From positions 1 to 52,991 of IMG/VR virus record IMGVR_UViG_3300009425_000021: a DNA stretch of 52,991 nucleotides. The stretch is one strand, 5' to 3'. Below the pieces are notes generated by a model. That model saw only the letters and a list, made by a program, of their open reading frames with translations. It was not told the DNA's origin and made no database searches. Both the position numbers and the translations under genes were made by a program. This DNA is from a virus (lineage: Duplodnaviria; Caudoviricetes). Positions 1,368 to 35,576 of this stretch are shown here, piece by piece (positions within the stretch are counted from its first letter, which is position 1; every line of letters begins with the position of its first letter).

Positions 1368-4300
1368 ATGGCCACAGCAATTCAATGGAGACGAGGCACC
1401 ACTTCCCAACACAGTAGTTTTACTGGTTTGGCAGGTGAGATCACAGTCGATACAGATTTAAATACCGTTATTGTCCACGACGGTTCAACAGCAGGCGGAC
1501 ACAGAATAGCAAAATATACAGAAGTAACATCAGCGGCGGCGGGCGATATTAGCTCAGTTGTTGCAGGTGCAGGTTTAACTGGTGGAGCAACCACTGGTGA
1601 TGCAACAATTAACGTTATTGGTGGAAACGGTATTACTGTTTCAGCTGACGCAGTTATTACAGACGACACTTATATTAAAGCATTGTTTAGTGCTGGTGGA
1701 GACCTGTCATATAGTAACGGTGTATTCAGCTTTACTAATGACGCAGGTGATATTAGTAGTGTTGTTGCAGGTACTGGTTTAAGCGGCGGAGCAACAACCG
1801 GCGTGGCAACTTTAGCACTTGACACTTCTTCATCAACATTTACAACAGGTGTACAATCATTCTTAGCAGGTGGAACACTTGCAGGAAGCATTATACCATC
1901 AACAGACATTACTTACGATTTAGGTTCGAGCAGTAAGCAATGGCGTGATGTGTATGTTGGTCCAGGATCACTTTACATTAACGGACAACAAGTACTTCAA
2001 GACAATTCAGGTACAATCCAAGTTAGTGCTGATGCAAACCAAAACGTTGGGATAGTAACATCTGGTTCAGGTGATATCGAACTTAACGCATCTGGTTCAG
2101 GTGTAATTAATTTACAATCAGCAATTACTGTTGACTCAGGTCAAACATTAACTGGTACTGGCGGTTTAACAATGGCTAGTAACATTAACTTAAACAGTAA
2201 TTCAGTTAACAACTTACCAGCTCCTGCACAGGCAGGTGACGCTACCAACAAAACATACGTTGATGGTGCATCTTACCTAACAGGCGGAACTGGTATTACA
2301 AATAGTTCAGGTACATTGGCAATTGATGCTACAGTTGTTACAACTACTGGAACACAGACAATTGGGGGTGATAAAACATTCTCAGGAACAACTACAATTA
2401 GTGGTTCTTTAAATTCATCAGGCGGAACAGTACAATTTGCTGATAACCTATTAACATTAAACGCAGACGCAACTGGTACACCATCAGAAGACGTTGGTAT
2501 TATTGTTGAAAGAGGAGACTCAACTAACGTTCAGTTCAAATGGATTGAAGCCGCAGATGAGTGGTCATTCACAAACGACGGATCGGCTTACCAAGCTGTT
2601 ACTGGACATGCAGACTTTAGTGCTGTAACAAGTGGAGACGGAAGTCTTACTTATAACAGTTCAACAGGTGCTTATACATATACAGGTCCAAGTGCTACAG
2701 AAGTAAGAGCACATTTAACTGCTGGAACTGGAATGACAGTTAGTGGTGGTGTTTTTGCTACAACAATTACACAATACACTGATGCATTAGCCCAAGCGGC
2801 TATCACTGTTAATGATGCAGGCGGAGACGGAAGTTTAGCAATATCCAGCGGCGTAATTACTTATACAGGACCTAGTGCGGCTGAAGCCGAAGCACAAATT
2901 GATGCACATCTAAGCGGTGGAACAGGTATTAATTATTCAGGCGGTGTTATTACTACAGATGATACAGTAGTTAGCACATCTGGAACACAGTCAATTGGTG
3001 GTGCAAAAACATTCACTGATAACTTAATTCTAAGTGGTAATTTAACAGTTAACGGTACACAGACTATTGTTAATACTGAAACATTAACAATTGATGATAA
3101 CATGCTTGTTCTTAACAATAATGAAGCCGGCACTCCAAGTGAAGATTCAGGTATTGAAGTAGAACGTGGAACATCAACTAATGTTAAACTACAGTGGAAA
3201 GAATCTGCAGATGAGTGGCAAATATTTGATGGCACAAGTACATACACAATTGCTAGAACTACAGCAGACTTAACAGAACAAAGTAACCTTTACTATACAC
3301 AGGCTAGAGCAGACGCCAGAGTGGCGGCGGCAACAGGTGCCAACCTAGATTTAAGCAGTAAAGATACAGGTGATTTATCTGAAAGTGGTAACTTATACTA
3401 CACAGATGCAAGAGCAGATGCCAGAATAGCGGCGGCTGACACAGGCGATTTAAGTGAAGGATCAAACGAATACTTTACTACTGCAAGAGCTAGAGCATCG
3501 ATTAGTGAAGGATCAACTGAATTAGCATATAATAGTACAACAGGTGTATTAACATTTGCACAAGGTAGTACTTCAGGCGTAGCAGAAGGATCAAACCTTT
3601 ACTACACAGATGCTAGAGCAGATGCAAGAATTGCCAACGCAAGTACAAGTGATTTAAGTGAAGGAACTAACTTATACCACACAACTGAAAGAGTACAAGA
3701 TATTGCAGGCGCAATGTTTACAGCAAACACTGAATCAGGCATTACAGTAACATACGACGATGCTGACGGCACAATTGATTTAACAACAAGTATTGCAGGA
3801 TTTAGTACTAGTAATTTAAGTGAAGGATCAAATTTATACTTTACTACTGCTAGAGCAGACGCTAGAGTTGATTTACAAACTGGCGGCAACTTAGATTTAA
3901 GCAGTAAAGATACAGGTGATTTAACTGAAAGTGGTAACTTATACTACACTGATGCAAGAGCAAGAGCATCAATTAGTGCTTCAGGCGATATTAGTTACAA
4001 CAGTTCAACTGGTGTAATTAGTTTTACTAATGACGCAGGTGATATTGAAGGTGTTACAGCAGGTACTGGTTTAAGTGGAGGCGGCACTTCAGGTACTGTT
4101 ACACTTAATGTTAGTGGATTAACAGTTGCACAACTGGCTGGATCGGCATTACAATTAAGCTCAGAATCATTTGCTGATAACAATACTACATTGATGACAT
4201 CAGCGGCAGTACAAGATAAGATTGAATCTTATGGTTATTCAACAACAACAGGCGATATTACAGCCGTAACAGCAGGAGCAGGTTTAACTGGTGGCGCATC

Positions 4301-5036
4301 TAGCGGATCAGCTGACTTGGGTGTTGGAGCAGGTACTGGTATTACTGTAAATGCAAATGATGTTGCAGTTAACATGAGTGCATTTAGTACTAGTGATTTA
4401 AGTGAAGGCTCAAACCTTTACTATACTAGTGGTAGAGCAGATGCTAGAGTTAGTGCAGTAGCAACTAAGGCATTTATTGACGCACTAAACGTTGATTCAG
4501 ATACATTAGACGGCATTAGTAGTGCAAGTTTCATGAGAAGTGATGCTAACGATTCACACAGTGGAACGATTACTCCTTCCTCAAACAATGCGATTAACTT
4601 AGGATCAAGTGGACTTAAATATGCAAATGTTTACGCAACTACATTCCAAGGTAATGCAACTTCGGCACAGTATGCGGATTTGGCTGAGAAATACGAAAGT
4701 GATGCAGAACTAGAAGCAGGCACAGTTGTTATGTTTGGTGGTGATAAAGAAGTTACAGCATGTGATAGTGAAAACTGTCATGCAGTAGCAGGTGTTATCA
4801 GTACTGATCCAGCTTATATGATGAACGCAGGAGCAGAAGGTCAATTTGTAGCATTAACCGGAAGAGTACCTACTAAGGTTACTGGTCCAGTTGCTAAAGG
4901 TGACTTAATGGTTTCCGCAGGTAACGGTATGGCTAAGGCTAATAACGATGCACAGGCAGGAAGAATGATTGGTAAAGCAGTTGGTTCTTCAGAAGGCGGA
5001 GAAGCTGTTATAGAAGTACTTGTTAACTTGATGTAA
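1368..5036 (+). CDS. Long tail-fibre/virion fibre-like protein (1222 aa)
   Basis: N-terminal IQWRRGTT...GEITVDTD (Mtd-N-like) motif; Gly/Thr/Ser-rich; 8 copies of LxExxNLY(Y/F)TxARA; several GDI..V.AG.GL.GG repeats; C-terminal YADLAEKY chaperone-like domain. Confidence 0.8.
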   Translation: MATAIQWRRGTTSQHSSFTGLAGEITVDTDLNTVIVHDGSTAGGHRIAKYTEVTSAAAGDISSVVAGAGLTGGATTGDATINVIGGNGITVSADAVITDDTYIKALFSAGGDLSYSNGVFSFTNDAGDISSVVAGTGLSGGATTGVATLALDTSSSTFTTGVQSFLAGGTLAGSIIPSTDITYDLGSSSKQWRDVYVGPGSLYINGQQVLQDNSGTIQVSADANQNVGIVTSGSGDIELNASGSGVINLQSAITVDSGQTLTGTGGLTMASNINLNSNSVNNLPAPAQAGDATNKTYVDGASYLTGGTGITNSSGTLAIDATVVTTTGTQTIGGDKTFSGTTTISGSLNSSGGTVQFADNLLTLNADATGTPSEDVGIIVERGDSTNVQFKWIEAADEWSFTNDGSAYQAVTGHADFSAVTSGDGSLTYNSSTGAYTYTGPSATEVRAHLTAGTGMTVSGGVFATTITQYTDALAQAAITVNDAGGDGSLAISSGVITYTGPSAAEAEAQIDAHLSGGTGINYSGGVITTDDTVVSTSGTQSIGGAKTFTDNLILSGNLTVNGTQTIVNTETLTIDDNMLVLNNNEAGTPSEDSGIEVERGTSTNVKLQWKESADEWQIFDGTSTYTIARTTADLTEQSNLYYTQARADARVAAATGANLDLSSKDTGDLSESGNLYYTDARADARIAAADTGDLSEGSNEYFTTARARASISEGSTELAYNSTTGVLTFAQGSTSGVAEGSNLYYTDARADARIANASTSDLSEGTNLYHTTERVQDIAGAMFTANTESGITVTYDDADGTIDLTTSIAGFSTSNLSEGSNLYFTTARADARVDLQTGGNLDLSSKDTGDLTESGNLYYTDARARASISASGDISYNSSTGVISFTNDAGDIEGVTAGTGLSGGGTSGTVTLNVSGLTVAQLAGSALQLSSESFADNNTTLMTSAAVQDKIESYGYSTTTGDITAVTAGAGLTGGASSGSADLGVGAGTGITVNANDVAVNMSAFSTSDLSEGSNLYYTSGRADARVSAVATKAFIDALNVDSDTLDGISSASFMRSDANDSHSGTITPSSNNAINLGSSGLKYANVYATTFQGNATSAQYADLAEKYESDAELEAGTVVMFGGDKEVTACDSENCHAVAGVISTDPAYMMNAGAEGQFVALTGRVPTKVTGPVAKGDLMVSAGNGMAKANNDAQAGRMIGKAVGSSEGGEAVIEVLVNLM

Positions 5037-6080: not shown

Positions 6081-6596
6081 ATGAAAATTACAGGTACACA
6101 TTTAGGTATCTTGGTTATAGTCGGATTTTTTATAATGTCGCTGACTAATAATAATCTTTATGCTGATGAACTAAAGTTTAAGTTCAAGTCTCCGTCATTT
6201 TCTGGTAACGGAACAGGAGCACATTATTTAACCATTGAGAACCAAGAGAAGTCACGAAAAGATAAGATTAAAGAAGACATAGAATCTGCGTTAGCACGAG
6301 CAGAGCGTGACAATGATAATTCGACAATTAATAAATTTATTAGAAATTTGGAGAGTAGAATTTATTCACAAATTTCTAAAGGATTAGTCGACAGTATGTT
6401 TTGTGATCCAGCAGTAGTTGTTGCATGTACAAATTCAGATTCGGGTAGTTTCGAAATTGAAGGAAATACTGTTACATACATTAAAACTACTAATGCTGAC
6501 GGGCTATCTGTTATTAGAATGACTATTGTTGACCCCGACGGAACAATAACAACTATCGAGATTCCAATTGGAATCGGCAATATTGGCGGCGGTTAA
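6081..6596 (+). CDS. csgF: Curli assembly protein CsgF-like
   Basis: Signal peptide, then ELKFKFKSPSFSGNG (CsgF N-terminal FxNPxFGG-type motif) and FIRNLESRIYSQIS; directly upstream of csgG. Confidence 0.8.
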   Translation: MKITGTHLGILVIVGFFIMSLTNNNLYADELKFKFKSPSFSGNGTGAHYLTIENQEKSRKDKIKEDIESALARAERDNDNSTINKFIRNLESRIYSQISKGLVDSMFCDPAVVVACTNSDSGSFEIEGNTVTYIKTTNADGLSVIRMTIVDPDGTITTIEIPIGIGNIGGG

Positions 6597-7606
6597 TGAA
6601 ACTGTCTAATTACATACTGTTCTTTATCGGCGCAATGTACTTAACTGGGTGTGCTAGTATATCTATACCTGGCGACACAGCATGTAATACGGACTTTCTC
6701 GAATGTGTAGAAGAGCCAAAGCAAATAGAATTACCCACATATCGAAAATTACGATATTTACCACCAAGCGAAACAATGCCAGTGGTAGCTGTTTATCAGT
6801 TTACTGATCAAACAGGACAACGAAAAAGTCAAGATGGTGTCGCTAGTTTTAGCACAGCGGTCACACAGGATCCGAAGAGCATATTGATTGACGCCTTGAA
6901 GGCGGCCGGTGCTCACGAAAACCCAAAAGGAACATGGTTCCGGGTTGTCGAACGGGGTCTTGGCTTAGATAACTTAGTGAGGGAAAGGCAGATAGTTCGT
7001 AGTACACGCGAACAATATCAAACTGAAGAAAAACCTCAACAAGCAGTACAACCATTGTTATTTGCTGGTATGATACTCGAAGGAGGTGTTGTAGGCTATG
7101 ACACTAACGTAGAGACCGGCGGTAATGGTGCAAGGTACTTAGGTATTGGCACTACAAACCAATACAGAAGAGATAGTGTTACTATATCACTTAGAGCAGT
7201 AAGTACGCTCACTGGTGAAGTAATACTGAATGTACAGACATACAAAACTATCCTTAGTACAGGAATGGCAGGAGACGTATTCAAATTTTTAGATATGGAT
7301 ACCCGATTGCTTGAATTAGAAAGTGGTATGACACAGAACGAAAGCGTAACCTATGCAGTACGGTCGGCAATTGAAGCCGCAGTATTGGCATTGATACAAC
7401 AAGGTGATGAAAGAGGATATTGGAAAATTGTGTATCCAGAGAATTGGGAAGAAACAGTAAACCAGCAAGAACGAGCTTACTGGATAAAAGTCAATAATCA
7501 GGAAATTCTGGATGCAGATGTAGACGACAAGCCTACGTCATCACAAAACACTTTTTGGAAAAAAATATTACTAAAAAGTGAACCCATTAATGGAGAAGAA
7601 AAATGA
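6596..7606 (+). CDS. csgG: Curli secretion outer-membrane lipoprotein CsgG
   Basis: Lipobox LTGC; VAVYQFTDQTGQRK, FSTAVTQ, WFRVVER.GLDNLVRERQIVR and GGNGARYLGIG are characteristic CsgG motifs. Confidence 0.92.
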   Translation: MKLSNYILFFIGAMYLTGCASISIPGDTACNTDFLECVEEPKQIELPTYRKLRYLPPSETMPVVAVYQFTDQTGQRKSQDGVASFSTAVTQDPKSILIDALKAAGAHENPKGTWFRVVERGLGLDNLVRERQIVRSTREQYQTEEKPQQAVQPLLFAGMILEGGVVGYDTNVETGGNGARYLGIGTTNQYRRDSVTISLRAVSTLTGEVILNVQTYKTILSTGMAGDVFKFLDMDTRLLELESGMTQNESVTYAVRSAIEAAVLALIQQGDERGYWKIVYPENWEETVNQQERAYWIKVNNQEILDADVDDKPTSSQNTFWKKILLKSEPINGEEK

Positions 7607-8433
7607 AGACAAACGTAATAAAGAAATTTACACTACAAGTCTTCGCTATAGTAAGTGTAATAATAGGAAGTCAGGCTCTAAGTGCAACGGATAACGAAGT
7701 ACTACTAGACCAGCAAGGTGACAACTTAGTATTAACAATATTACAAGCTGGTAACAGCAACAGAGTTTCTGGACAGGCCACAGGGTCAGGAGATTTAGTT
7801 GTAACTGGTAACAACTTGATAATTGATATCATACAAGACGGTAACACAAATAAGTTTTTTGGAGACTTAATATTTGACGGATCCGGTAGTTCAGTAATGG
7901 ACTTTTATCAATTAGGTGATAGTAACGTCTGGGATTTACAGATTGGTGCTAACTCTAATAGTGCAGATAATACAGACATGCTAGTAGACATACAGGGCGA
8001 CGGTAACATCTTTGATGTTAATATAGCTCATAATGCCGTAGCAGAAAGCACTAACTTTGATTTAGATATACTTGGCTCAAGGAACGATTTTACCACAAGT
8101 TTTTCAAACAATAAAGTTTGGGCAACCGCCTCTGGAACTAACAGTGTAGGTGGTATAATAAGTACTGGAACCGGAACTCAAACAATGAGTGGTATTACAA
8201 TTGATACGAGTAACGTTGTATGGAATATGGAGATTATAGGAGACGACAACGCATTTGCTACTAAGCAAAGTGGTAACGGTGGTCATTCCTTGACAGTAGT
8301 CCTAGACGGCAGTGATGGAGATTTTCAATTTATACAGGACATGACAGCAACATGTAGTCCAACGTGTGAAGGGATAATTAACATAAATCTAGATAGCGAA
8401 AATGCATCAGTTAGTATTAAACAGACTGATTAA
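7603..8433 (+). CDS. Curlin-repeat secreted protein (CsgA/CsgB-like)
   Basis: Signal peptide; repeated QxGxxN motifs (QAGNSN, QDGNTN, QLGDSN, QGDGN). Confidence 0.7.
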   Translation: MKTNVIKKFTLQVFAIVSVIIGSQALSATDNEVLLDQQGDNLVLTILQAGNSNRVSGQATGSGDLVVTGNNLIIDIIQDGNTNKFFGDLIFDGSGSSVMDFYQLGDSNVWDLQIGANSNSADNTDMLVDIQGDGNIFDVNIAHNAVAESTNFDLDILGSRNDFTTSFSNNKVWATASGTNSVGGIISTGTGTQTMSGITIDTSNVVWNMEIIGDDNAFATKQSGNGGHSLTVVLDGSDGDFQFIQDMTATCSPTCEGIININLDSENASVSIKQTD

Positions 8434-9574
8434 CATAACAGCAGTATTGGTACTGTTGCTTACACCAAATCTAAGTGCCGCTGAGAGCATCGGCGGCATT
8501 ATTGAACAAAGTGGAGCAACTGGAAGTATTGTGAGATTGTCAGGCGAAGAACTGGCGGCAAGTATTTCAGCTGATATTGTAAGTTATGATGAAGTGGAAA
8601 CAACAAATGGAAGACTAAAAATTGAGTTTCTTGACAAAACTCAGGTTAGTCTGACAGAACACACTTACATGGAAATAGACGAATATGTTTTCGATCCGGA
8701 TCCGAGTAAAAGTAAGATGGCATTAAATTTTGTACAAGGAACAGCCAGGTTTGCCACAGGCAGTTTAGGGCTTGTAGCAAAAGAGAACATAACAATCCAA
8801 ACTCCTACAGCAAGTATAGGGATTAGGGGAACAGATTTTACTACCACAGTCGATGAACTGGGTAGAAGTTTAGTAATATTATTACCAGACGAAGATTGCA
8901 CAGATAGAGTTGCATTAGAGGAAGGTTGTGCTCCAAGTGGCAGTATAACTGTAACTAATGAAGGCGGCACAGTAATATTAGATGAAGCCTACCAAGCAGT
9001 TATGGTAAGCACACTTGAAACAAGCCCAACTCAGCCTGTTGTACTACTAGATATAAATTTAAATATGATAGACAATATGTTTATTGTAGCAGAACCAAAA
9101 CAGATTACAGAAGCAAAAGAAGAACAAGTACAAGAATTAAAAGGCGACAACGGATTATTAGACTTTGATGGCTTAGATGCAAATGCAATTGAGCAAGATG
9201 TTTTAGCAGATACGACAGAAGATTTAGACTACACAGAATTAGATATAGATTTATTAAATGTAGACTTCCTAGTAGACTTGTTAGACATAGTAGAAAAAGC
9301 TAATTCTGGATTAGACGATGAAGGCGGAGACTCAGGCAGTGGCACAAATAAATTAATAGGTGCTGTATACGGAGTTAATCCTGGAAATCAATTTAATATT
9401 ATTCCAGATTTAGATGGCAAAGTATTTTTTCTTAGGCAAGTAAGCAATACAATTAGTATTAAATTACAAAAAGGATCCGTAGCACAGCTAGATATAAAAG
9501 ACGGCGATATAGGAGACACTATTATATGTTTAAGTAGTTGTGAAAACATATTAATAAGTATTACACAAGAATAA
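8402..9574 (+). CDS. FecR-domain periplasmic protein
   Basis: Signal peptide; FecR-type motifs (DEVETTNGRLKIEFLDKTQVSL, TIQTPTASIGIRGTDF); acidic linker; C-terminus CLSSCENILISITQE. Confidence 0.85.
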   Translation: MHQLVLNRLINITAVLVLLLTPNLSAAESIGGIIEQSGATGSIVRLSGEELAASISADIVSYDEVETTNGRLKIEFLDKTQVSLTEHTYMEIDEYVFDPDPSKSKMALNFVQGTARFATGSLGLVAKENITIQTPTASIGIRGTDFTTTVDELGRSLVILLPDEDCTDRVALEEGCAPSGSITVTNEGGTVILDEAYQAVMVSTLETSPTQPVVLLDINLNMIDNMFIVAEPKQITEAKEEQVQELKGDNGLLDFDGLDANAIEQDVLADTTEDLDYTELDIDLLNVDFLVDLLDIVEKANSGLDDEGGDSGSGTNKLIGAVYGVNPGNQFNIIPDLDGKVFFLRQVSNTISIKLQKGSVAQLDIKDGDIGDTIICLSSCENILISITQE

Positions 9575-9575
9575 T

Positions 9576-10499
9576 ATGAATATAGATGAAAAATTAAATA
9601 ATATGAAACCAAAAGATACTCCTTTACTTGTAATAGGATATATTATACTGGGTATGTTTTTATTAATGCCTTTAACAGCAACAGCCACAGATAACGAAGT
9701 ACAATTGGATCAAAACGGCGATGATGTTATTATTGGTATAGGTCAAGAAGGTTTAAATAATAGTGTTGATGTTGATTTAGGATTAACCCACAGTGATAAT
9801 AATATTTTAAGAGCACACCAAGACGGTGATAACAACGATATATTTTTTAGCACAGACGGTGATAGCAACGAAATATCAATATTGCAAACTGGACGACTTA
9901 ACGAAATTGGCTGGACCAATGCGTGGGGATCAGGCATAAACTGGGGCGGAGACTTAGACGGCGATAACAATACTTTAGCCTTTCAGCAACGTTGTTCCCG
10001 TGGTGCCGCATGTGGCAAATCAGATATAGGATTTCACATTAAAGGAGACTCCAACACAGTTCGATACGGACAAGGAGTTTATATGGCAAGCTCAACCAAT
10101 ACCGCATTTTTATACGATACCGACGAGGGCGGAAACCATACAACAACGTTAGACATTCACGGCGACAACAACACTCTTACTGGATACCAACGTAATGGAT
10201 CCATAAATGCTTACAGTGGTCATACCGCAAATTTATACCTGTACGGAGATAATCAAACACTCCATGCCGTTCAAGAAACCGACGGAGCAAAGACACTAAA
10301 TTATACCAGTAACGTGGATGGAACAGTTGGCAACATTAGACAAACTCATCACGGAGCCCACACAGCCACAGTAGTGCTAAACGGCACTTACCCAACTAAT
10401 ATAACTTTACTTCAAAATTCAACAACAGCACAGTCATACTCGATAACACAAAATTGTGTAACAGCAGGCGGCTGTACTATTTCGGTTACACAAGAATAA
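9576..10499 (+). CDS. Curlin-repeat secreted protein (CsgA/CsgB-like)
   Basis: Signal peptide; mature N-terminus ATDNEVQLDQNGD matches 7603; repeats QEGLNN, QDGDNN, QTGRLN, GDNN; ends CVTAGGCTISVTQE. Confidence 0.72.
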   Translation: MNIDEKLNNMKPKDTPLLVIGYIILGMFLLMPLTATATDNEVQLDQNGDDVIIGIGQEGLNNSVDVDLGLTHSDNNILRAHQDGDNNDIFFSTDGDSNEISILQTGRLNEIGWTNAWGSGINWGGDLDGDNNTLAFQQRCSRGAACGKSDIGFHIKGDSNTVRYGQGVYMASSTNTAFLYDTDEGGNHTTTLDIHGDNNTLTGYQRNGSINAYSGHTANLYLYGDNQTLHAVQETDGAKTLNYTSNVDGTVGNIRQTHHGAHTATVVLNGTYPTNITLLQNSTTAQSYSITQNCVTAGGCTISVTQE

Positions 10500-10503
10500 T
10501 CGG

Positions 10504-10532
10504 TTGACATAGTACGATTTCTGTACTATAAT
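10504..10532 (+). promoter_or_regulatory. Sigma70-type early promoter
   Basis: TTGACA-N17-TATAAT, perfect consensus. Confidence 0.85.
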
Positions 10533-10539
10533 ATAACTT

Positions 10540-10740
10540 ATGAAACACATGATCAAGTGGTTAAAAATATCTGCGGGTATAAATATATACCTTAGCTTCA
10601 TACTAACATTAGTCTTAGTAGCACTTATGGTGGATATTGGGCTAGATAGTTACTGGCACGGCGCAGACTTCAAGAATAGTATCATAGAAGAACTGCATAA
10701 CGCGGATGAACTAAAACGAAATGAGAACAACACAGGATAA
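10540..10740 (+). CDS. Small membrane protein
   Basis: One TM helix; ATG lies 7 nt after the -10 element (probably leaderless). Confidence 0.6.
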   Translation: MKHMIKWLKISAGINIYLSFILTLVLVALMVDIGLDSYWHGADFKNSIIEELHNADELKRNENNTG

Positions 10741-11038
10741 ACTTAATACTGCAATAGTTCAGTATAAGAGATCCATACAAGTGTTGTTGATACTTCCGCA
10801 TGGTGTACTATTCACAATACTTTTTCCCACTTTTGTATTTAATGTTATAGCCTGTACACTTATAATTATAATTTTCTGGATGTGGTGCGACTTAATTTAT
10901 TATATAGAAGAATCAAATAGAAATCAGATATTAGGCCTAATAGATACATGTACTAACGACCAAACCAAAGACATTTTGTGTTATGAATTATATTTGCATG
11001 ACCAAAATAGCATCTTTGGAGACCCACTAATTAGATAA
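10721..11038 (+). CDS. Hypothetical membrane protein (2 TM)
   Basis: Hydrophobic stretch at residues ~19-58; overlaps the previous gene. Confidence 0.6.
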   Translation: MRTTQDKLNTAIVQYKRSIQVLLILPHGVLFTILFPTFVFNVIACTLIIIIFWMWCDLIYYIEESNRNQILGLIDTCTNDQTKDILCYELYLHDQNSIFGDPLIR

Positions 11039-11094
11039 ATAATATATGTAATAATAGCAGATGGCTTTATTACCTTATATATAAGGAGACGGAT

Positions 11095-11373
11095 ATGAAC
11101 AATTTAGTATCTTTTTTCGGTTTAATTCTTTTATCAAGCATCGTAGGATGTGCCTCAGTTGGTGGCGCCTGGAATGCTGGTACAGAGATTGTCACAGGAA
11201 CAGTTGACTCTGTTGTGGGCGGAGCCGCCACAATGGCAGTAGCGATTACTGATGATGTTCGAAACATTGCAGACGTAACTATTGACACAGCACAAGGTGT
11301 TGTTAGAACAGTTGCAGAAAATGTTGATAAACAGACTGATGAATTACAAAAAGACAAAGAGCCGGGAAAGTAG
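11095..11373 (+). CDS. Small lipoprotein (short form, 92 aa)
   Basis: AAGGAG SD; lipobox IVGC; amphipathic V/T/A-rich helices; late promoter GATAAATA at 11034. Confidence 0.8.
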   Translation: MNNLVSFFGLILLSSIVGCASVGGAWNAGTEIVTGTVDSVVGGAATMAVAITDDVRNIADVTIDTAQGVVRTVAENVDKQTDELQKDKEPGK

Positions 11374-11498
11374 GTAACTTTTCTCTTTTCAGAAAAGAGA
11401 AGGAAAAGGAACTCACAGCACAGGAATTAGTTTTGCTTTTCAAACAGAACCAAGAAAAGTTAGAACAATACTGTACAGCTAACCCAACAGAATGTTAA
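11364..11498 (+). other. Programmed -1 frameshift site and extension (G GGA AAG plus hairpin), adding 42 aa
   Basis: Slippery GGGAAAG at 11364-11370 directly before TAG; hairpin at 11379-11402; the -1 frame stays open to TAA at 11496-11498, just before the terminator. Confidence 0.7.
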
Positions 11499-11502
11499 CA
11501 CT

Positions 11503-11527
11503 AAAGCACTCGCAAGAGTGCTTTTTT
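11503..11527 (+). terminator. Intrinsic terminator
   Basis: AAAGCACTC-GCAA-GAGTGCTTTTTT. Confidence 0.88.
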
Positions 11528-11636
11528 GTTTTTTAAACGATAAATACTTGTACATAATAACACAGGGTTTACTTATAACACCACACAAACACACCTAAGC
11601 GAACCAACAAAAGCACAGTACCCTAAAGGAGAAAAA

Positions 11637-13070
11637 ATGAAGATAAGAATCTTATCAGCATTAGCCTTGATTGGGTTAATGACGACAACGGGTACATTAC
11701 AAGCCCAAGCCACTGGCACATGTACAGCAGGCACCCAGTATTGTGAAGCAAGTACAACGGATACTACAAGTACCACCACAACTACTGCAACTAATAATAA
11801 TACGAATACTTCGACCAATACAAATAATTCGACGAACACGAATACCAACGCAAACACAAACACGAATACTTCGACTAATACAAATAATTCAACTAACACG
11901 AATACTTCGACAAATAATAACACCAACGCAAATACGAACACGAATACCAACGCGAACACAAACACGAATACCAACACGAATACCAACGCGAACACAAACA
12001 CGAATACCAACACCAACAATAACACCAACAATAACACCAACGCAAACACAAACACGAATAATTCGACCAATACGAATAATTCGACCAACAGCAACACCAA
12101 TAATAATACTTCGACGAATAATAATACCAATAATAACACCAACAATAATAATAATACGTCGACAAGTACAAATAATAACGTGTCAAGCGGTGGAACGAAT
12201 AACACAAATGCTAACACGAATAACAACACCAATACCAACAATAGTACTTCGAACAATACTAACACCAATAATAACACCAGTGATAGCACGGTAAACAGTA
12301 CAAGTAATAATACGAATACTAACAACAGTAATATTGATCAAAATGTTAACTCGAATAGTACTAGTAACAATACTAACACCAATAATAACAATAACAATTC
12401 GACCAGTGAAAATACCAATAACAATAATAACACGTCGACTAGTGACAGTAATGTAACAACTGACAACACGTCAGAAAGCAACAATACTAACACCAACAAT
12501 AATACTAACAAAAACGAAAACATCAATAAGACTGACCAGACTATTAAACAAGAAATAACAACTAAGGCTCCACCTGCTAGTGCTATAGCACCAAGTATAG
12601 GTTCAAGTTACTCACAAGACTTATGTACAACTGGTATATCAGGTGCTTTCCAAGGACAGGTATTTGGACTAAGTGGCGGTAAGAGTGTAAGAGACATGAA
12701 CTGTGAACGTATCAAGTTAAGTAAAACAATATACGATATGGGTATGAAAGTTGCGGCAGTTAGTTTAATGTGTCAAGACGAACGTGTATTTAAAGCAATG
12801 GAAATGGCTGGAACGCCTTGTCCTTATATGGGATCAATTGGCGATGCGGCTACTAAGCAATGGGCAGAGAATAGCGATGAACGAGCAGATGCTAAACGTG
12901 GATGGTTCGGCAAAAAGAAAAGTAACAGGTCATCAGCTGAAGTAGACTCGAGTGTACTTAACTCAGGCGAAGACTTTGAAAAGTTCATGAAAAAATGTCG
13001 TAAGAAATCAGGCAAAGGCAAGAAGAAAAGTAAAGGCCAATGTGAGGCAGAGTGGGAATCAAACACTTAA
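11637..13070 (+). CDS. Secreted Asn/Thr-rich low-complexity protein with Cys-rich C-terminal domain
   Basis: AAGGAG SD, late promoter at 11539, signal peptide, ~250-aa N/T/S tract (NTNTNANTNTN...), C-terminal APSIG...DLC...NCERIKL...MCQDERV...AGTPCP domain. Confidence 0.8.
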   Translation: MKIRILSALALIGLMTTTGTLQAQATGTCTAGTQYCEASTTDTTSTTTTTATNNNTNTSTNTNNSTNTNTNANTNTNTSTNTNNSTNTNTSTNNNTNANTNTNTNANTNTNTNTNTNANTNTNTNTNNNTNNNTNANTNTNNSTNTNNSTNSNTNNNTSTNNNTNNNTNNNNNTSTSTNNNVSSGGTNNTNANTNNNTNTNNSTSNNTNTNNNTSDSTVNSTSNNTNTNNSNIDQNVNSNSTSNNTNTNNNNNNSTSENTNNNNNTSTSDSNVTTDNTSESNNTNTNNNTNKNENINKTDQTIKQEITTKAPPASAIAPSIGSSYSQDLCTTGISGAFQGQVFGLSGGKSVRDMNCERIKLSKTIYDMGMKVAAVSLMCQDERVFKAMEMAGTPCPYMGSIGDAATKQWAENSDERADAKRGWFGKKKSNRSSAEVDSSVLNSGEDFEKFMKKCRKKSGKGKKKSKGQCEAEWESNT

Positions 13071-16727: not shown

Positions 16728-18824
16728 ATGAAATTTTTATATAGTGGTTATGCAGTACTGATATCTATTGTGTTGCTACTTGCATTGCGAGTAGCAGATC
16801 CAACGGCACTACAAAGTGTTAGAGGTCAAACATTTGATGCATATCAACAGTTAGATACAATTAAGCAAAGCCAGGATGTTGTACTATTAAACATCGGCGA
16901 AAAAAGTTTAGCAGTTAATGGTCAATACCCTTGGCCCAGACAATACTATGCACAAATGGTGATAGATGTTGCAGGCGCCGGAGGCGGTGTGCTAGGCTGG
17001 ACGATTATGTTTCCTGAAGCAGACAGGTTTTCTGGAGACGAAATATTTGCTAATTATTTGATGGAAAATAAGGTTAATGTGCAAGGAGCAAGACGTAATC
17101 CTATTAACTTTAATGTATTAAGTCAAGCAACTAGTACAAGAGGCATTAAAACATCAGGCCCACATATAGGAACAGGCACAATTGGCCCTGTGCCAGCAAA
17201 AGATTATTTACTAAAGTGGCCCAACTTAGTTACAAACATTCCGCTACTAGAAGCAGTAGCAAACGGCAAAGGCGTAACAGCGTCAGCACCACAGCCAGAT
17301 AACCAAACACGAACATACCCATTAGCAATTACAGTTGGCGATAGACTGTATCCTAGTTTTGCTATTGAAATGCTAAGGGTAAGTAAAGGTCAAAAAAGTT
17401 ATATGGTTAAGACTAGCGAATTGGGAATACAAGAAGTTGCTGTTAAAGGATACGACCCAATAGTAACGCAGTCAGACGGTACAGCATACATTCGCTTTAA
17501 CAACACATTCGAGGAAATTGAATACTTGGGAGCCGAAACTTTGGACCATCTTGCAGGCAAAATGGTTATAGTAGGTGTTACAGCAGAAGGTATTGCAAAT
17601 CCTGTGCCTACGCCAAGAGGTAATTTGTATCCACAGCAAATACATGCTCATATGCTACAGAACTTTATAGATAGCAGTAACATTACCAGGAATGAGTTAA
17701 GTGCTGTGTACGAGCTTCTGTGTGCGTTACTGGGCATGATATTAATAGGTTTAGCGATATATAAATCGCATATATGGGTAGGATTAGTAACTACAGTTAC
17801 TATTATAGGAGGAATTGTATACTACAGTATACATTCTTACACAGCAAACTTGGTATTATTTGATGCAACGTTTCCAGCAATAGCAAGTTTCTTAATATTT
17901 ACCCAGGCAAGTTTTAACAACTTCTGGATACAGTTTAAACTAAGAGCAGAGATACAAAAACAATTTGCCGGTTATGCCTCTCCTACTGTAGTGCGTATGT
18001 TACAAGAAAATCCAGAACTAATTAAGCAAGGTATGAAGAAAGAAGTAAGTATTTGCTTCTCAGATTTACGTGGATTTACACCTCTAGGTGAGAGCTTTGG
18101 GGACGATGTACAAGGTTTAACAAAGATAATGAATGGGTATATGGATGCTATTACACAACCTATACTTGATGCAGACGGCATGGTGATTAAATATATCGGC
18201 GATGCAAGTATGCACATACACAATGCTCCTATGGACGATCCAGACCATCCTAAGAGTGCGGTGCAAACAGGACTATTAATGCTTAGGGCAGTAGAGAAAT
18301 TCAATGATAAAATTGTTAAAGAAGGTAGACCACCCGTTGGTATGGGTGCTGGTATTAATACTGGGCTCGGTTATATTGGGGAAATGGGCTCCACTGCAAG
18401 ACACTCATATGACATACTCGGAGATGCAGTTAGTACCGCGGCAAGAATAGAAAGCAAATGTAAAGAGTACGGATGTTTACTCCTTGTGGGCGGTGATACA
18501 CATAAACATACTGCAAATGATTTCTTTTATTTAAAAGTAGATGACTTGGCAGTAAAAGGAAAAACAATTGGTATAGAAATATATACCGTACTTGATATTA
18601 AGAAAACTAAGTATGCTAAAGCAAAACAAATGCACGAAGACATGCACACACATTATCGCAATCAAGAATTTAAGAAAGCAATTAATCTATGTGAAAAGTT
18701 AGCAGATGCATTTGAAGGCAAGATGTCAAACTATTATACTATGTGGATTGAACGTTGTAAATTCCAAATGACTCAAACACTTCCTAAAGATTGGGACGGA
18801 GTATTTATTGCTACATCGAAGTAG
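16728..18824 (+). CDS. CHASE2-domain class III adenylate cyclase
   Basis: N-terminal TM; CHASE2 (GQYPWPRQYYA, PVPTP); 3 TMs; cyclase motifs FSDLRGFT, KYIGDA, GINTG, YDILGDAVSTAARIE, VKGK. Confidence 0.93.
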   Translation: MKFLYSGYAVLISIVLLLALRVADPTALQSVRGQTFDAYQQLDTIKQSQDVVLLNIGEKSLAVNGQYPWPRQYYAQMVIDVAGAGGGVLGWTIMFPEADRFSGDEIFANYLMENKVNVQGARRNPINFNVLSQATSTRGIKTSGPHIGTGTIGPVPAKDYLLKWPNLVTNIPLLEAVANGKGVTASAPQPDNQTRTYPLAITVGDRLYPSFAIEMLRVSKGQKSYMVKTSELGIQEVAVKGYDPIVTQSDGTAYIRFNNTFEEIEYLGAETLDHLAGKMVIVGVTAEGIANPVPTPRGNLYPQQIHAHMLQNFIDSSNITRNELSAVYELLCALLGMILIGLAIYKSHIWVGLVTTVTIIGGIVYYSIHSYTANLVLFDATFPAIASFLIFTQASFNNFWIQFKLRAEIQKQFAGYASPTVVRMLQENPELIKQGMKKEVSICFSDLRGFTPLGESFGDDVQGLTKIMNGYMDAITQPILDADGMVIKYIGDASMHIHNAPMDDPDHPKSAVQTGLLMLRAVEKFNDKIVKEGRPPVGMGAGINTGLGYIGEMGSTARHSYDILGDAVSTAARIESKCKEYGCLLLVGGDTHKHTANDFFYLKVDDLAVKGKTIGIEIYTVLDIKKTKYAKAKQMHEDMHTHYRNQEFKKAINLCEKLADAFEGKMSNYYTMWIERCKFQMTQTLPKDWDGVFIATSK

Positions 18825-23138: not shown

Positions 23139-23228
23139 GGAGAGTTGGCTGAGTGGTCGAAAGCGCCTCCCTGCTAAGGAGGTATATGGGTAACTGTATC
23201 GAGGGTTCGAATCCCTCACTCTCCGCCA
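23139..23228 (+). tRNA. tRNA-Ser(GCU)
   Basis: Acceptor GGAGAGT/ACTCTCC; anticodon arm CCTCC-CTGCTAA-GGAGG; long variable arm; GGTTCGAATCC; encoded CCA. Confidence 0.95.
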
Positions 23229-23771: not shown

Positions 23772-23846
23772 GAGTTAGTGTTCTAATGGTAAGATGCAGG
23801 TCTCCAACACCTTGCGATTGGGGTTCGAATCCTTACTAGCTCGCCA
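23772..23846 (+). tRNA. tRNA-Trp(CCA)
   Basis: Acceptor GAGTTAG/CTAGCTC, G73, CCA end; anticodon loop CT-CCA-AC; TTCGAAT T-loop. Confidence 0.88.
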
Positions 23847-25439: not shown

Positions 25440-25515
25440 GGGGATGTAGCTCAGTTGGGAGAGCGGTTCCCTTGCACGGAACAGGTCGTAGGTTCGATCC
25501 CTATCATCTCCACCA
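25440..25515 (+). tRNA. tRNA-Ala(UGC)
   Basis: GGGGATG/CATCTCC with the G3:U70 Ala identity pair; GTTCC-CTTGCAC-GGAAC; ACCA end. Confidence 0.96.
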
Positions 25516-34090: not shown

Positions 34091-34926
34091 GTGATAATCA
34101 TTACCAATTAGTATCTTCGGAACTAACGCCTATATTTCAATTTGCTAAAGATTGCTTTGTTCGTAGCATAGAACGTTTTACCGGAGACATCGACGAGTTT
34201 AATCGAAATGGGCATAATGACTTATACATAAATAAGACTAATCTAGGTTACATATATTTGTGGAAAACAGGTGTAATAAATAAGTTTAGAAACGATTTCC
34301 AAAAAAAGTTGACAATACCTATACATGACGTTATAATTTTACATACACCAGCACACGGACAATACCAGTGGCATAACGAAGGAATGGAATATACAGAACA
34401 TGCAACAGAGCAATATAGAAAAGTGGTTAGATTAACAAGAAGATCAGTTGCACTTAATTATCCAGTTGATAATGCAGACCTATCTAACAGTAAAATCGAA
34501 TGGGCCCAAGGCAGTAACAGAGTGAATGAGTTGTTAATAGACGGATACAGCAATGTAATGAGTAGTGTAGGAAAGAATCCACCACAAGCAATGGTAGAAA
34601 GCCATATAAAATTACGTTCTGCCACAATGCCAGATACTATAATACCTGGCATGACGGATATACTATATACTACACATGACAGTGGAGAAGGTGTAAGAAT
34701 AAAATCAGGACACAATATGGTATATGATAAACATGATGAATTACTTACTAAAGTAGATGAATATTACGGAATGCCAGTACCTACATTAATAAGAACTAGT
34801 CAGTGGCATAGGATAGATAACACCCAAGTAGAGGAAGATAGGAATATGGGGTCAATAAGTTTTGATCCAGATTATTCTTACTTCGATATTAAAAAATTAA
34901 TTATGAATAACGAGTTTATAAAATGA
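34087..34926 (+). CDS. Tandem paralogue 3, putative oxygenase
   Basis: WHNEG ... LIRTSQWH; ATGA overlap with the previous gene. Confidence 0.55.
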   Translation: MSDNHYQLVSSELTPIFQFAKDCFVRSIERFTGDIDEFNRNGHNDLYINKTNLGYIYLWKTGVINKFRNDFQKKLTIPIHDVIILHTPAHGQYQWHNEGMEYTEHATEQYRKVVRLTRRSVALNYPVDNADLSNSKIEWAQGSNRVNELLIDGYSNVMSSVGKNPPQAMVESHIKLRSATMPDTIIPGMTDILYTTHDSGEGVRIKSGHNMVYDKHDELLTKVDEYYGMPVPTLIRTSQWHRIDNTQVEEDRNMGSISFDPDYSYFDIKKLIMNNEFIK

Positions 34927-35576
34927 TAATCGGAATAACAGGACTAATAGGATCTGGTAAAGATACTGTTGCAAGTTGTTTTGTTAACAGAGGTTGTTTA
35001 CAGGATAGTTTTGCGGCACCACTTAAAGATGTGTGTGCGTCTATATTCGGATGGAAAAGATCAGACCTAGAAGGAGACACAACCGATAGTAGAGACTTCA
35101 GGGAAACAGCTGATATGTTTTGGACTCGAAAACTAGGCATAGATAATTTTACTCCTAGATTAGCATTACAATTAATGGGAACAGAAGTACTTCGTACTCA
35201 TTTCCATAAAGATATATGGATCGATAGTTTAGAGTACAGAATGCGTAGAGCAGAAATAGACCACCCATGTGTTGTTATTAGTGATACTAGATTTACAAAC
35301 GAGCTAGATTTAATTAAACGTCTAGGCGGAGTTGTAATTAATGTTGAACGTGGTGACAAACCCGAGTGGTATGAAACGGCAACCAAAGCCAACAATGGGC
35401 ATGTACCATCTCAGCACACAATGAACACAAAATTTAAACAGGTACACCTCAGCGAATGGAATTGGATAGGGTATGACTTTGACCATGTGCTTACAAACAA
35501 CGATACGTTAGATGCGTTACAAACAGGTGTAGATTCCTTGCACGAACTAATCACAGAAAACGATTTAAAAAAATAA
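34923..35576 (+). CDS. Deoxynucleoside monophosphate kinase (T4 gp1-like)
   Basis: IIGITGLIGSGKDT, FAAPLKD, TPRLALQLMGTE, VVISDTRFTNE. Confidence 0.92.
   Translation: MIIGITGLIGSGKDTVASCFVNRGCLQDSFAAPLKDVCASIFGWKRSDLEGDTTDSRDFRETADMFWTRKLGIDNFTPRLALQLMGTEVLRTHFHKDIWIDSLEYRMRRAEIDHPCVVISDTRFTNELDLIKRLGGVVINVERGDKPEWYETATKANNGHVPSQHTMNTKFKQVHLSEWNWIGYDFDHVLTNNDTLDALQTGVDSLHELITENDLKK

Follow-up and report, generated by a model that had tools for sequence, protein, structure and literature searches.

Probable programmed -1 ribosomal frameshifting in a lipoprotein gene of uncultured marine phages

A lipoprotein gene that stops at a slippery heptamer

We analysed a 52,991-base stretch of DNA, the IMG/VR virus record IMGVR_UViG_3300009425_000021 (hereafter 'the window'; completeness 15% according to CheckV). 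On sequence evidence, it is a fragment of an uncultured marine jumbo phage. The gene of interest codes for a small predicted lipoprotein, and its open reading frame (ORF) stops directly after a slippery heptamer, beyond which the -1 frame codes for a Cys-containing tail (Table 1). An earlier note on this DNA had proposed that a programmed -1 ribosomal frameshift at this site yields two lipoprotein isoforms.

Table 1. Features of the lipoprotein gene, its -1 extension and the two genes upstream
Feature	Position	Strand	Remarks
Ribosome-binding site AAGGAG	11083..11088	+	6 nt upstream of ATG; read from sequence
0-frame ORF, 92-aa lipoprotein precursor (short isoform)	11095..11373	+	ATG 11095, TAG 11371-11373
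Signal peptide, lipobox I-V-G-C	11095..11151	+	Cys19 codon 11149-11151; pattern-based
Slippery heptamer G_GGA_AAG, X_XXY_YYZ phase	11364..11370	+	0-frame stop TAG directly next
-1 extension, 42 codons (VGNFSLF...YCTANPTEC)	11371..11498	+	TAA 11496-11498; 134-aa long isoform
Predicted stimulatory hairpin, 12 pairs, one bulge	11378..11408	+	Starts 7 nt past heptamer; ViennaRNA
Intrinsic terminator-like stem-loop 11503-11524 and T-run	11503..11534	+	4 nt past -1 stop
'tm66', 66-aa single-pass membrane protein, first module gene	10540..10740	+	ORF; conserved N-terminus MKHMIKWLKI and transmembrane segment
'tm105', 105 aa, two hydrophobic segments, second module gene	10721..11038	+	ORF; syntenic in close relatives

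The gene product is predicted from its N-terminal pattern to be a bacterial-type lipoprotein. In the window protein, MNNLVSFFGLILLSSIVG precedes the Cys residue in a signal peptidase II-type pattern. The lipobox Cys is invariant in a ten-sequence alignment (A1), and a lipobox-like xxxC motif followed by an ASVGG-type sequence was matched in 88 of 90 family proteins. The mature lipoprotein is rich in Gly, Ala, Val and Thr. Its 89 database relatives are mostly 92-95 aa long, and 83 of them end with GK, KK or KKD.

The 3' end of the ORF reads CCG (11362-64) GGA AAG (11368-70) TAG (11371-73). The sequence confirms what had been described there, namely the final codons, the phase of the heptamer and a -1 frame that stops just short of the terminator. 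From position 11364, the -1 frame reads GKVGNFSLFRKEKEKELTAQELVLLFKQNQEKLEQYCTANPTEC and is open for 44 codons, corresponding to GK followed by 42 new residues. As sequence predictions, both the isoform sizes (92 and 134 aa) and the junction peptide EPGKVGNFSLFR are correct. The -1 ORF, described as having no start codon of its own, contains neither ATG nor GTG and a single TTG, at codon 30 of 51. A GC-rich hairpin followed by a T-run is also found just after the -1 stop in most relatives.

As a chance check, we inspected the 130 ORFs of at least 60 aa in the window. In three of them, an in-phase heptamer lies no more than two codons away from the stop, and in 28 the -1 frame extends the ORF by at least 40 codons. 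The chance occurrence of a heptamer with an open -1 frame in a single sequence is thus not negligible, and the finding rises above chance because it is conserved in relatives, as described below. The frame break itself is no sequencing error, since at least 0.99 of the sampled words of the region 10500-11600 are present in 14 seawater DNA runs from 13 studies, any of which may be where the record originated.

Slip site and tail occur together

The close set of relatives comprises 30 viral loci collected in a viral-contig scan with the 92-aa protein, to which we added the window; they represent 17 unique junctions. In all 31 loci, an X_XXY_YYZ heptamer lies in phase at the stop or one codon before it, together with an open -1 ORF of 38-60 codons. 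Homologues devoid of the heptamer or of the open -1 frame were to count against the proposal, and it survived this comparison. The site takes the forms G_GGA_AAG-TAR, A_AAA_AAG-TAA, A_AAA_AAG-GAY-TAA and C_CCA_AAA-GAG-TAA. All 31 -1 ORFs end with a (Y/F)C...C motif, which conforms to (Y/F)CxxNPxEC in 29 of them. Furthermore, a TGA in the -1 frame abuts the heptamer on its 5' side in 13 loci, and in those the frames are therefore exchangeable only at the two heptamer codons. In one of the 89 database relatives, P0080 (136 aa, from a single 1195-b contig), lipoprotein and tail are naturally fused in frame; P0078, which is 98% identical to it, has the usual split layout. Our search for longer in-frame fusions with the tail of the window (P0002) found none.

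Scans with five distant family members added loci L033-L206. After removal of one of the 205 loci, which ran off its contig, the wider set consists of 204 loci with 122 unique junction-plus-tail sequences. We counted unique sequences, since a few contigs recur under different identifiers. In 69 of the 122, a Cys-pair tail is combined with a canonical in-phase heptamer at most two codons away from the stop; in three (L123, L130 and L131), it is combined with a degenerate G_GAA_AAG directly before TAA. Neither tail nor heptamer is present in 49, and none of the 122 has the heptamer without the tail. The remaining sequence (L157) is a false motif match, in which an unrelated Cys-rich string satisfied our loose Cys pattern. 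The canonical sites of the 69 sequences are A_AAA_AAG next to the stop (24) or one codon earlier (20), G_GGA_AAG (15), C_CCA_AAA (7), C_CCA_AAC (1), G_GGA_AAC (1) and a double site (1). In the degenerate G_GAA_AAG cases, only the A-site Lys tRNA could re-pair, which fits slippage on A_AAG before the stop.

Thus, 69 of the 72 unique tail-bearing junctions carry a canonical in-phase heptamer, and inside gene bodies, 35 of 10,487 codon positions show such a heptamer. The tail-less sequences are likewise Lys- and Glu-rich at their C-termini, yet an in-phase heptamer is found in none of the 49. Composition therefore does not create the heptamer.

A lineage of four loci within a heptamer-bearing clade (L067, 2501-2773) has CCT AAA CAG GAC TGA in place of CCA AAA AAG GAC TAA. 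Its -1 frame no longer encodes the Cys tail, and this lineage has apparently lost its slip site along with its tail.

A hairpin downstream of the heptamer

ViennaRNA predicts a hairpin shortly after the heptamer of the window, whose outer three pairs join positions 11373-75 with 11411-13. In the 50 nt that follow the heptamer, its energy is -14.5 kcal/mol with a z-score of -3.53, and none of 200 dinucleotide shuffles was as stable. The hairpin of the earlier note is a different register of the same region. The perfect 9-bp inverted repeat that it described is present at 11381-11401, with TTCTCTTTT (11381-89), the loop CAG and AAAAGAGAA (11393-401). However, it begins 10 nt rather than 8 nt past the heptamer, and the minimum free energy (MFE) fold prefers the overlapping register. 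In our fold models, the register starting 7 nt past the heptamer is more likely to be the stimulatory one.

Over the same 50-nt span, z-scores of -2 or lower were obtained for 13 of the 17 unique sequences of the close set, the exceptions being L003, L006, L025 and L028, and the stem starts 5-8 nt past the heptamer in 14 of the 17. The wider set provided 57 unique windows with a median z-score of -2.21, of which 35 have values of -2 or lower. Control windows of 50 nt taken upstream in the same genes have a median z-score of 0.07, with one of 57 at -2 or lower (Wilcoxon p 6e-10). In windows with no significant hairpin, the structure, if one acts, would be different or absent.

The long A-runs of some slip sites suggest another way to produce the long form, namely transcriptional slippage. 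RNA polymerase would add an A in the run, and some mRNAs would then carry the tail in frame. A_AAA_AAG, with runs of six to seven A residues, is found in 45 of the 72 unique tail-bearing junctions. Long A-runs support realignment according to the part of PMC3711429 that deals with them, and transcriptional slippage could contribute at these A6-A7 variants. Nevertheless, that same part implicates runs of more than seven A residues. G_GGA_AAG, the site of the window and of 14 other unique junctions, has just three, and nine more junctions have C_CCA_AAA/C or G_GGA_AAC. Transcriptional slippage also requires neither the X_XXY_YYZ phase, which the large majority of sites respect, nor a hairpin 7 nt downstream. 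Lastly, RNA templates give no sign of it. Contigs from four RNA-library runs of four studies, covering 11154-11418, 11044-11488, 11190-11412 and 11268-11439, span the site (11364-11373) with no differing letter and no insertion or deletion, although minor variants may be hidden. These contigs argue only mildly against a change at the mRNA level. Taken together, transcriptional slippage is a very improbable source of the tail.

The tail as a startless reading frame under selection

A second possibility is that the tail ORF constitutes a small gene in its own right, on which ribosomes either initiate independently or reinitiate after terminating at the lipoprotein stop. The 0-frame stop overlaps the start of the tail ORF as in coupled genes, and some relatives have an in-frame ATG, GTG or TTG inside it. 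Nevertheless, these codons are absent from the whole -1 ORF in 13 of the 31 close loci and are otherwise scattered internally (codons 15-50). Similarly, in 63 of 69 unique tail ORFs, no start codon precedes the ~15 residues leading up to the Cys motif. Reinitiation leaves unexplained a phase-locked heptamer that is gone whenever the tail is absent. In addition, a 25-40-aa peptide devoid of a signal sequence would not leave the cytoplasm, in which the conserved Cys pair is harder to explain. We therefore give little credence to independent initiation, and even less than to transcriptional slippage.

The substitution patterns point to translation of the tail in the -1 frame. Using Nei-Gojobori counts on ungapped stretches before the -1 stop, we computed the ratio of the proportions of nonsynonymous and synonymous differences (pN/pS) for each frame in four clades. 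In the window clade (10 unique sequences), the ratio is 0.29 for the -1 frame, compared with 0.81 and 2.36 for the other two. The values are 0.24 (others 1.04 and 1.77) for clade B, with 16 unique sequences, and 0.12 (others 1.01 and 2.18) for clade C, with 10. The six unique sequences of the C_CCA_AAA clade give 0.55, with 1.14 for both other frames. In the -1 frame, variation is greatest at third codon positions, as in the window clade, where the variable columns by codon position are 14/7/22 of 27. By these ratios, the -1 frame is under purifying selection in the four clades.

This frame-specific pattern is the main obstacle to a third explanation, in which the downstream region is not translated at all and is either a conserved RNA, such as a 3' untranslated region or terminator context, or a decaying gene remnant, with the heptamer as a by-product of a Lys-rich C-terminus. 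C-termini rich in Lys and Glu do occur throughout the family, and the AlphaFold2 model of the natural fusion P0080, built from 41 rows, is poor (mean pLDDT, the predicted local distance difference test, 45), with its one modelled helix in the tail, at residues 110-130 (58-66), and the rest lower. However, in the 72 unique sequences, many of them strongly diverged in nucleotides, no stop closes the -1 frame until 31-68 codons past the junction, and the tail-less Lys/Glu-rich ends lack in-phase heptamers, so that this explanation is hardly tenable.

Two predicted forms of an exported lipoprotein

Altogether, we find an in-phase heptamer, a structure at the ~5-9 nt spacing expected of a downstream stimulator, a coding -1 ORF with no start and the loss of the site with the tail, which are the features of a frameshift cassette. 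Based on these comparisons, it is highly probable that a programmed -1 ribosomal frameshift gives rise to the short lipoprotein and to a form with a Cys pair that is longer by 42 residues. The core proposal of the earlier note is thus supported by the co-occurrence of site and tail, the coding pattern of the -1 frame and an enriched hairpin at constant spacing. That the two isoforms are made at a fixed ratio, as it also suggested, is an inference.

A number of points weigh against this interpretation. The sequences are related, and the Fisher p for the association of site and tail is thus descriptive rather than a true probability. Assembled RNA contigs drop rare variants and may contain DNA. 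The hairpin is non-significant in 22 of the 57 unique windows, including the whole C_CCA_AAA clade and the A_AAA_AAG lineages L003 and L006. It also overlaps coding sequence, a F-S-L-F segment and a stretch rich in Lys and Glu, and its conservation could be partly driven by the peptide. Although the stem arms vary by lineage with their pairing preserved (CG/GC at column 7, UA/GC/CG at column 10 and CG/AU/UA at column 13), pair types taken from per-sequence MFE folds are canonical by construction. The 3' arms are unaligned in our MAFFT alignments of the hairpin region (A2 and A3), which are hence unsuited to pair counting or RNAalifold. Lastly, a covariance model built on three sequences (R1) gave a clear match for L027 only (E 4e-4) and weak ones for L022, L015 and L019 (E 0.3-0.8), and it missed the hairpin of the window.

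In the proposed mechanism, most ribosomes presumably stop at the TAG codon (11371) and release the 92-aa precursor. A fraction of them would slip by -1 on G_GGA_AAG, the P-site tRNA-Gly re-pairing from GGA to GGG and the A-site tRNA-Lys from AAG to AAA. Slippage would be aided by the hairpin ~7 nt downstream, and probably also by the slowly decoded adjacent stop codon. The slipped ribosomes would then read 42 further codons in the -1 frame, yielding the 134-aa form. A single mRNA may thus give two forms of a small, exported and lipid-anchored protein. The tail is predicted to consist of a short linker, an amphipathic helix and a C-x6-C loop, whose Cys residues would most likely form a disulfide in the oxidizing periplasm.

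The gene types suggest that the lipoprotein possibly has a role in the envelope, e.g. in superinfection exclusion or lysis control, together with the two membrane proteins encoded upstream. A more specific scenario, which we regard as speculative and rather unlikely, is that the lipoprotein is the effector of a mobile three-gene module that remodels the envelope of the infected cell, and that the frameshift sets the ratio of its two forms, of which only the long one has a disulfide-looped docking domain. If so, envelope remodelling would, for example, exclude superinfecting phages, or it would time lysis or secretion through the phage CsgG-like pore. The slip rate would then tune the number of active anchors in very abundant uncultured ocean phages.

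Comparison with known recoding systems

To our knowledge, the conserved programmed frameshifts described in phages are for the most part those of tail chaperones, of some capsid genes and of mobile-element transposases. Here, a known recoding mechanism would operate in an unusual type of gene, coding for an exported lipoprotein, with unusually clean comparative support. Five canonical slip sites appear interchangeable, the frames can be exchanged within two codons only in many sequences, and site and tail are lost together. Our literature searches on phage lipoprotein frameshifting and on programmed frameshifts of jumbo phages brought up nothing about this gene.

The G/GT tail assembly chaperone of phage lambda reportedly arises by frameshifting on G_GGA_AAG. 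The window has the same heptamer, and in both cases slippage by -1 towards the end of a short ORF generates, or would generate, a C-terminally extended minor form with the same N-terminus. The site and the two-ORF layout are kept in both while the sequences drift. In contrast with lambda, the gene here codes for a lipoprotein with a signal peptide and is flanked by genes for small membrane proteins, the hairpin is prominent, and the 0-frame stop abuts the heptamer. We rejected the hypothesis that the lipoprotein gene itself codes for a tail assembly chaperone. It has no homology to this group in Pfam or PHROGs, and it does not lie between tail tube and tape-measure genes. Its neighbours code for curlin-repeat, FecR-like and small membrane proteins and a CHASE2 cyclase, and the sheath gene is 24 kb away.

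The capsid gene 10A/10B of phage T7 is also said to be frameshifted. As proposed here, the -1 shift takes place near the 0-frame stop and extends a fraction of the molecules by a few dozen C-terminal residues. The T7 product is a structural capsid protein, with another slip site and another stimulator, whereas ours is a predicted exported lipoprotein. In E. coli, copA reportedly uses C_CCA_AAG to produce CopA(Z). One of our clades has the near-identical C_CCA_AAA or C_CCA_AAC (8 unique junctions), and this clade shows no significant hairpin within 50 nt. The copA shift truncates a large transporter to a small chaperone, in contrast with the extension of a small protein here.

A_AAA_AAG, the commonest heptamer of the family, is followed by a stem-loop a few nt downstream, and this combination is also that of the IS911/IS3-type cassettes. 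It is shared as well with tau/gamma production from E. coli dnaX, for which the part of PMC3711429 on this gene describes a conserved upstream Shine-Dalgarno-like stimulator. By eye, we found AAGGA or AGGGGA 9-14 nt upstream of the heptamer in some of the 17 unique close sequences, but not in the window or L015. On this inspection of the upstream 30 nt, a conserved element of this kind was not evident. The frameshift product of dnaX is the shorter one, whereas the shifted product is longer here.

Distribution of the family and its membrane module

The lipoprotein has no Pfam family, and PHROGs returned just two marginal matches (E ~0.002), both to families of unknown function. For the tail alone, we discarded a match to CP12, which was at chance level (E 0.041). 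A search of positions 10900-11700 against Rfam gave nothing near the gathering score. The ESM Atlas yielded viral hypothetical clusters only, with a Gly-zipper lead at 0.84, below the threshold.

A profile search of 1.84 billion representative proteins retrieved just 38 clusters at E <= 0.001. We compared three family proteins (P0001, P0093 and P0112) with 50,697 GenBank phage records by tblastn and obtained no match, and thus found no cultured phage with the gene. Scanning the GTDB genomes once with alignment A1 yielded 77 pattern matches, but none of them was confirmed, which is weak evidence of absence. By these searches, the family is confined to uncultured marine phage contigs. Since gene callers annotate the short form alone, protein databases lack the long isoform.

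Two small genes for membrane proteins, tm66 and tm105, precede the lipoprotein gene in the window. Neither has a Pfam or PHROG family match. Of 141 related loci, 78 have a tm66 homologue immediately before the lipoprotein gene, and tm66 also accompanies the tail-less subfamily. Its C-terminus is short and variable. These two points give no particular ground for proposing that the tail binds tm66. The trio is syntenic in the close loci, and tm105 has counterparts of 80-91 aa in the distant loci L108 and L091. We considered a two-component spanin, with the lipoprotein as the o-spanin, and rejected it, as the upstream single-pass protein has only ~10-35 residues after its transmembrane segment, whereas an i-spanin has a long periplasmic coiled-coil domain.

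The lipoprotein gene had been placed inside a curli locus. This is true in the window, but other phages have it flanked by DNA polymerase and recA-like genes. In L108, where the two small membrane genes occupy 2014-2437, the trio is found between genes for a family-B DNA polymerase and SNase/RecA-like proteins, with no curli cluster. L091 (small membrane genes at 2052-2448) has a polymerase-adjacent layout according to its ORF listing, in which the only family-tested neighbour is a NifU-like protein. The lipoprotein is therefore no intrinsic curli component. Membership of the Csg family (CsgC/E/F/G, curlin) was also rejected, given that there is no Pfam match and no obligatory linkage to csgG or csgF. 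Conversely, the trio is absent from the curli cluster of phage HTVC008M.

Genetic context in the window

Phage genes in the window include those for a T4-type tail-sheath stabilizer, a tail sheath, a T4-type large terminase and a gp32-like protein. The terminase and its counterpart in the Pseudomonas jumbo phage PA5oct share 57% identity. The curli-like cluster (6081-10499 and 16728-18824) codes for CsgF, CsgG, two curlin-repeat proteins, a FecR-like protein and a CHASE2 adenylate/guanylate cyclase. The curlin-repeat proteins are borderline Pfam matches (E ~9e-4), and CsgG shares 48% identity with its counterpart in Pelagibacter phage HTVC008M. Phage curli clusters have been described in PMC7029224 and PMC9004378, whose main texts contain no mention of a lipoprotein or a frameshift; the published clusters are those of pelagiphages and methylophages of ~140-150 kb. 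The lipoprotein offers a handle on an unexplained phage curli-like cluster and on the adjoining membrane module.

Between the lipoprotein and cyclase genes, a gene found only in some relatives (11637-13070) codes for a secreted 477-aa protein with ~250 residues of nearly pure Asn/Thr/Ser repeats. Its Cys-containing C-terminal domain matches PHROG 20531, of unknown function. Further upstream, a 1222-aa protein (1368-5036) combines an Mtd_N domain (major tropism determinant N-terminal) with BppL_N baseplate domain repeats and is probably a receptor-binding or fibre protein.

Three tRNA genes, for Ser-GCT, Trp-CCA and Ala-TGC, are located at 23139-23228, 23772-23846 and 25440-25515, respectively. 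None of these three is a tRNA-Lys or tRNA-Gly gene with a bearing on the slip site. Finally, a 217-aa ORF directly upstream of the tail sheath gene (34923-35576) ends with an in-phase A_AAA_AAA followed by an 18-codon -1 extension, which could be due to chance or represent a second recoding site.

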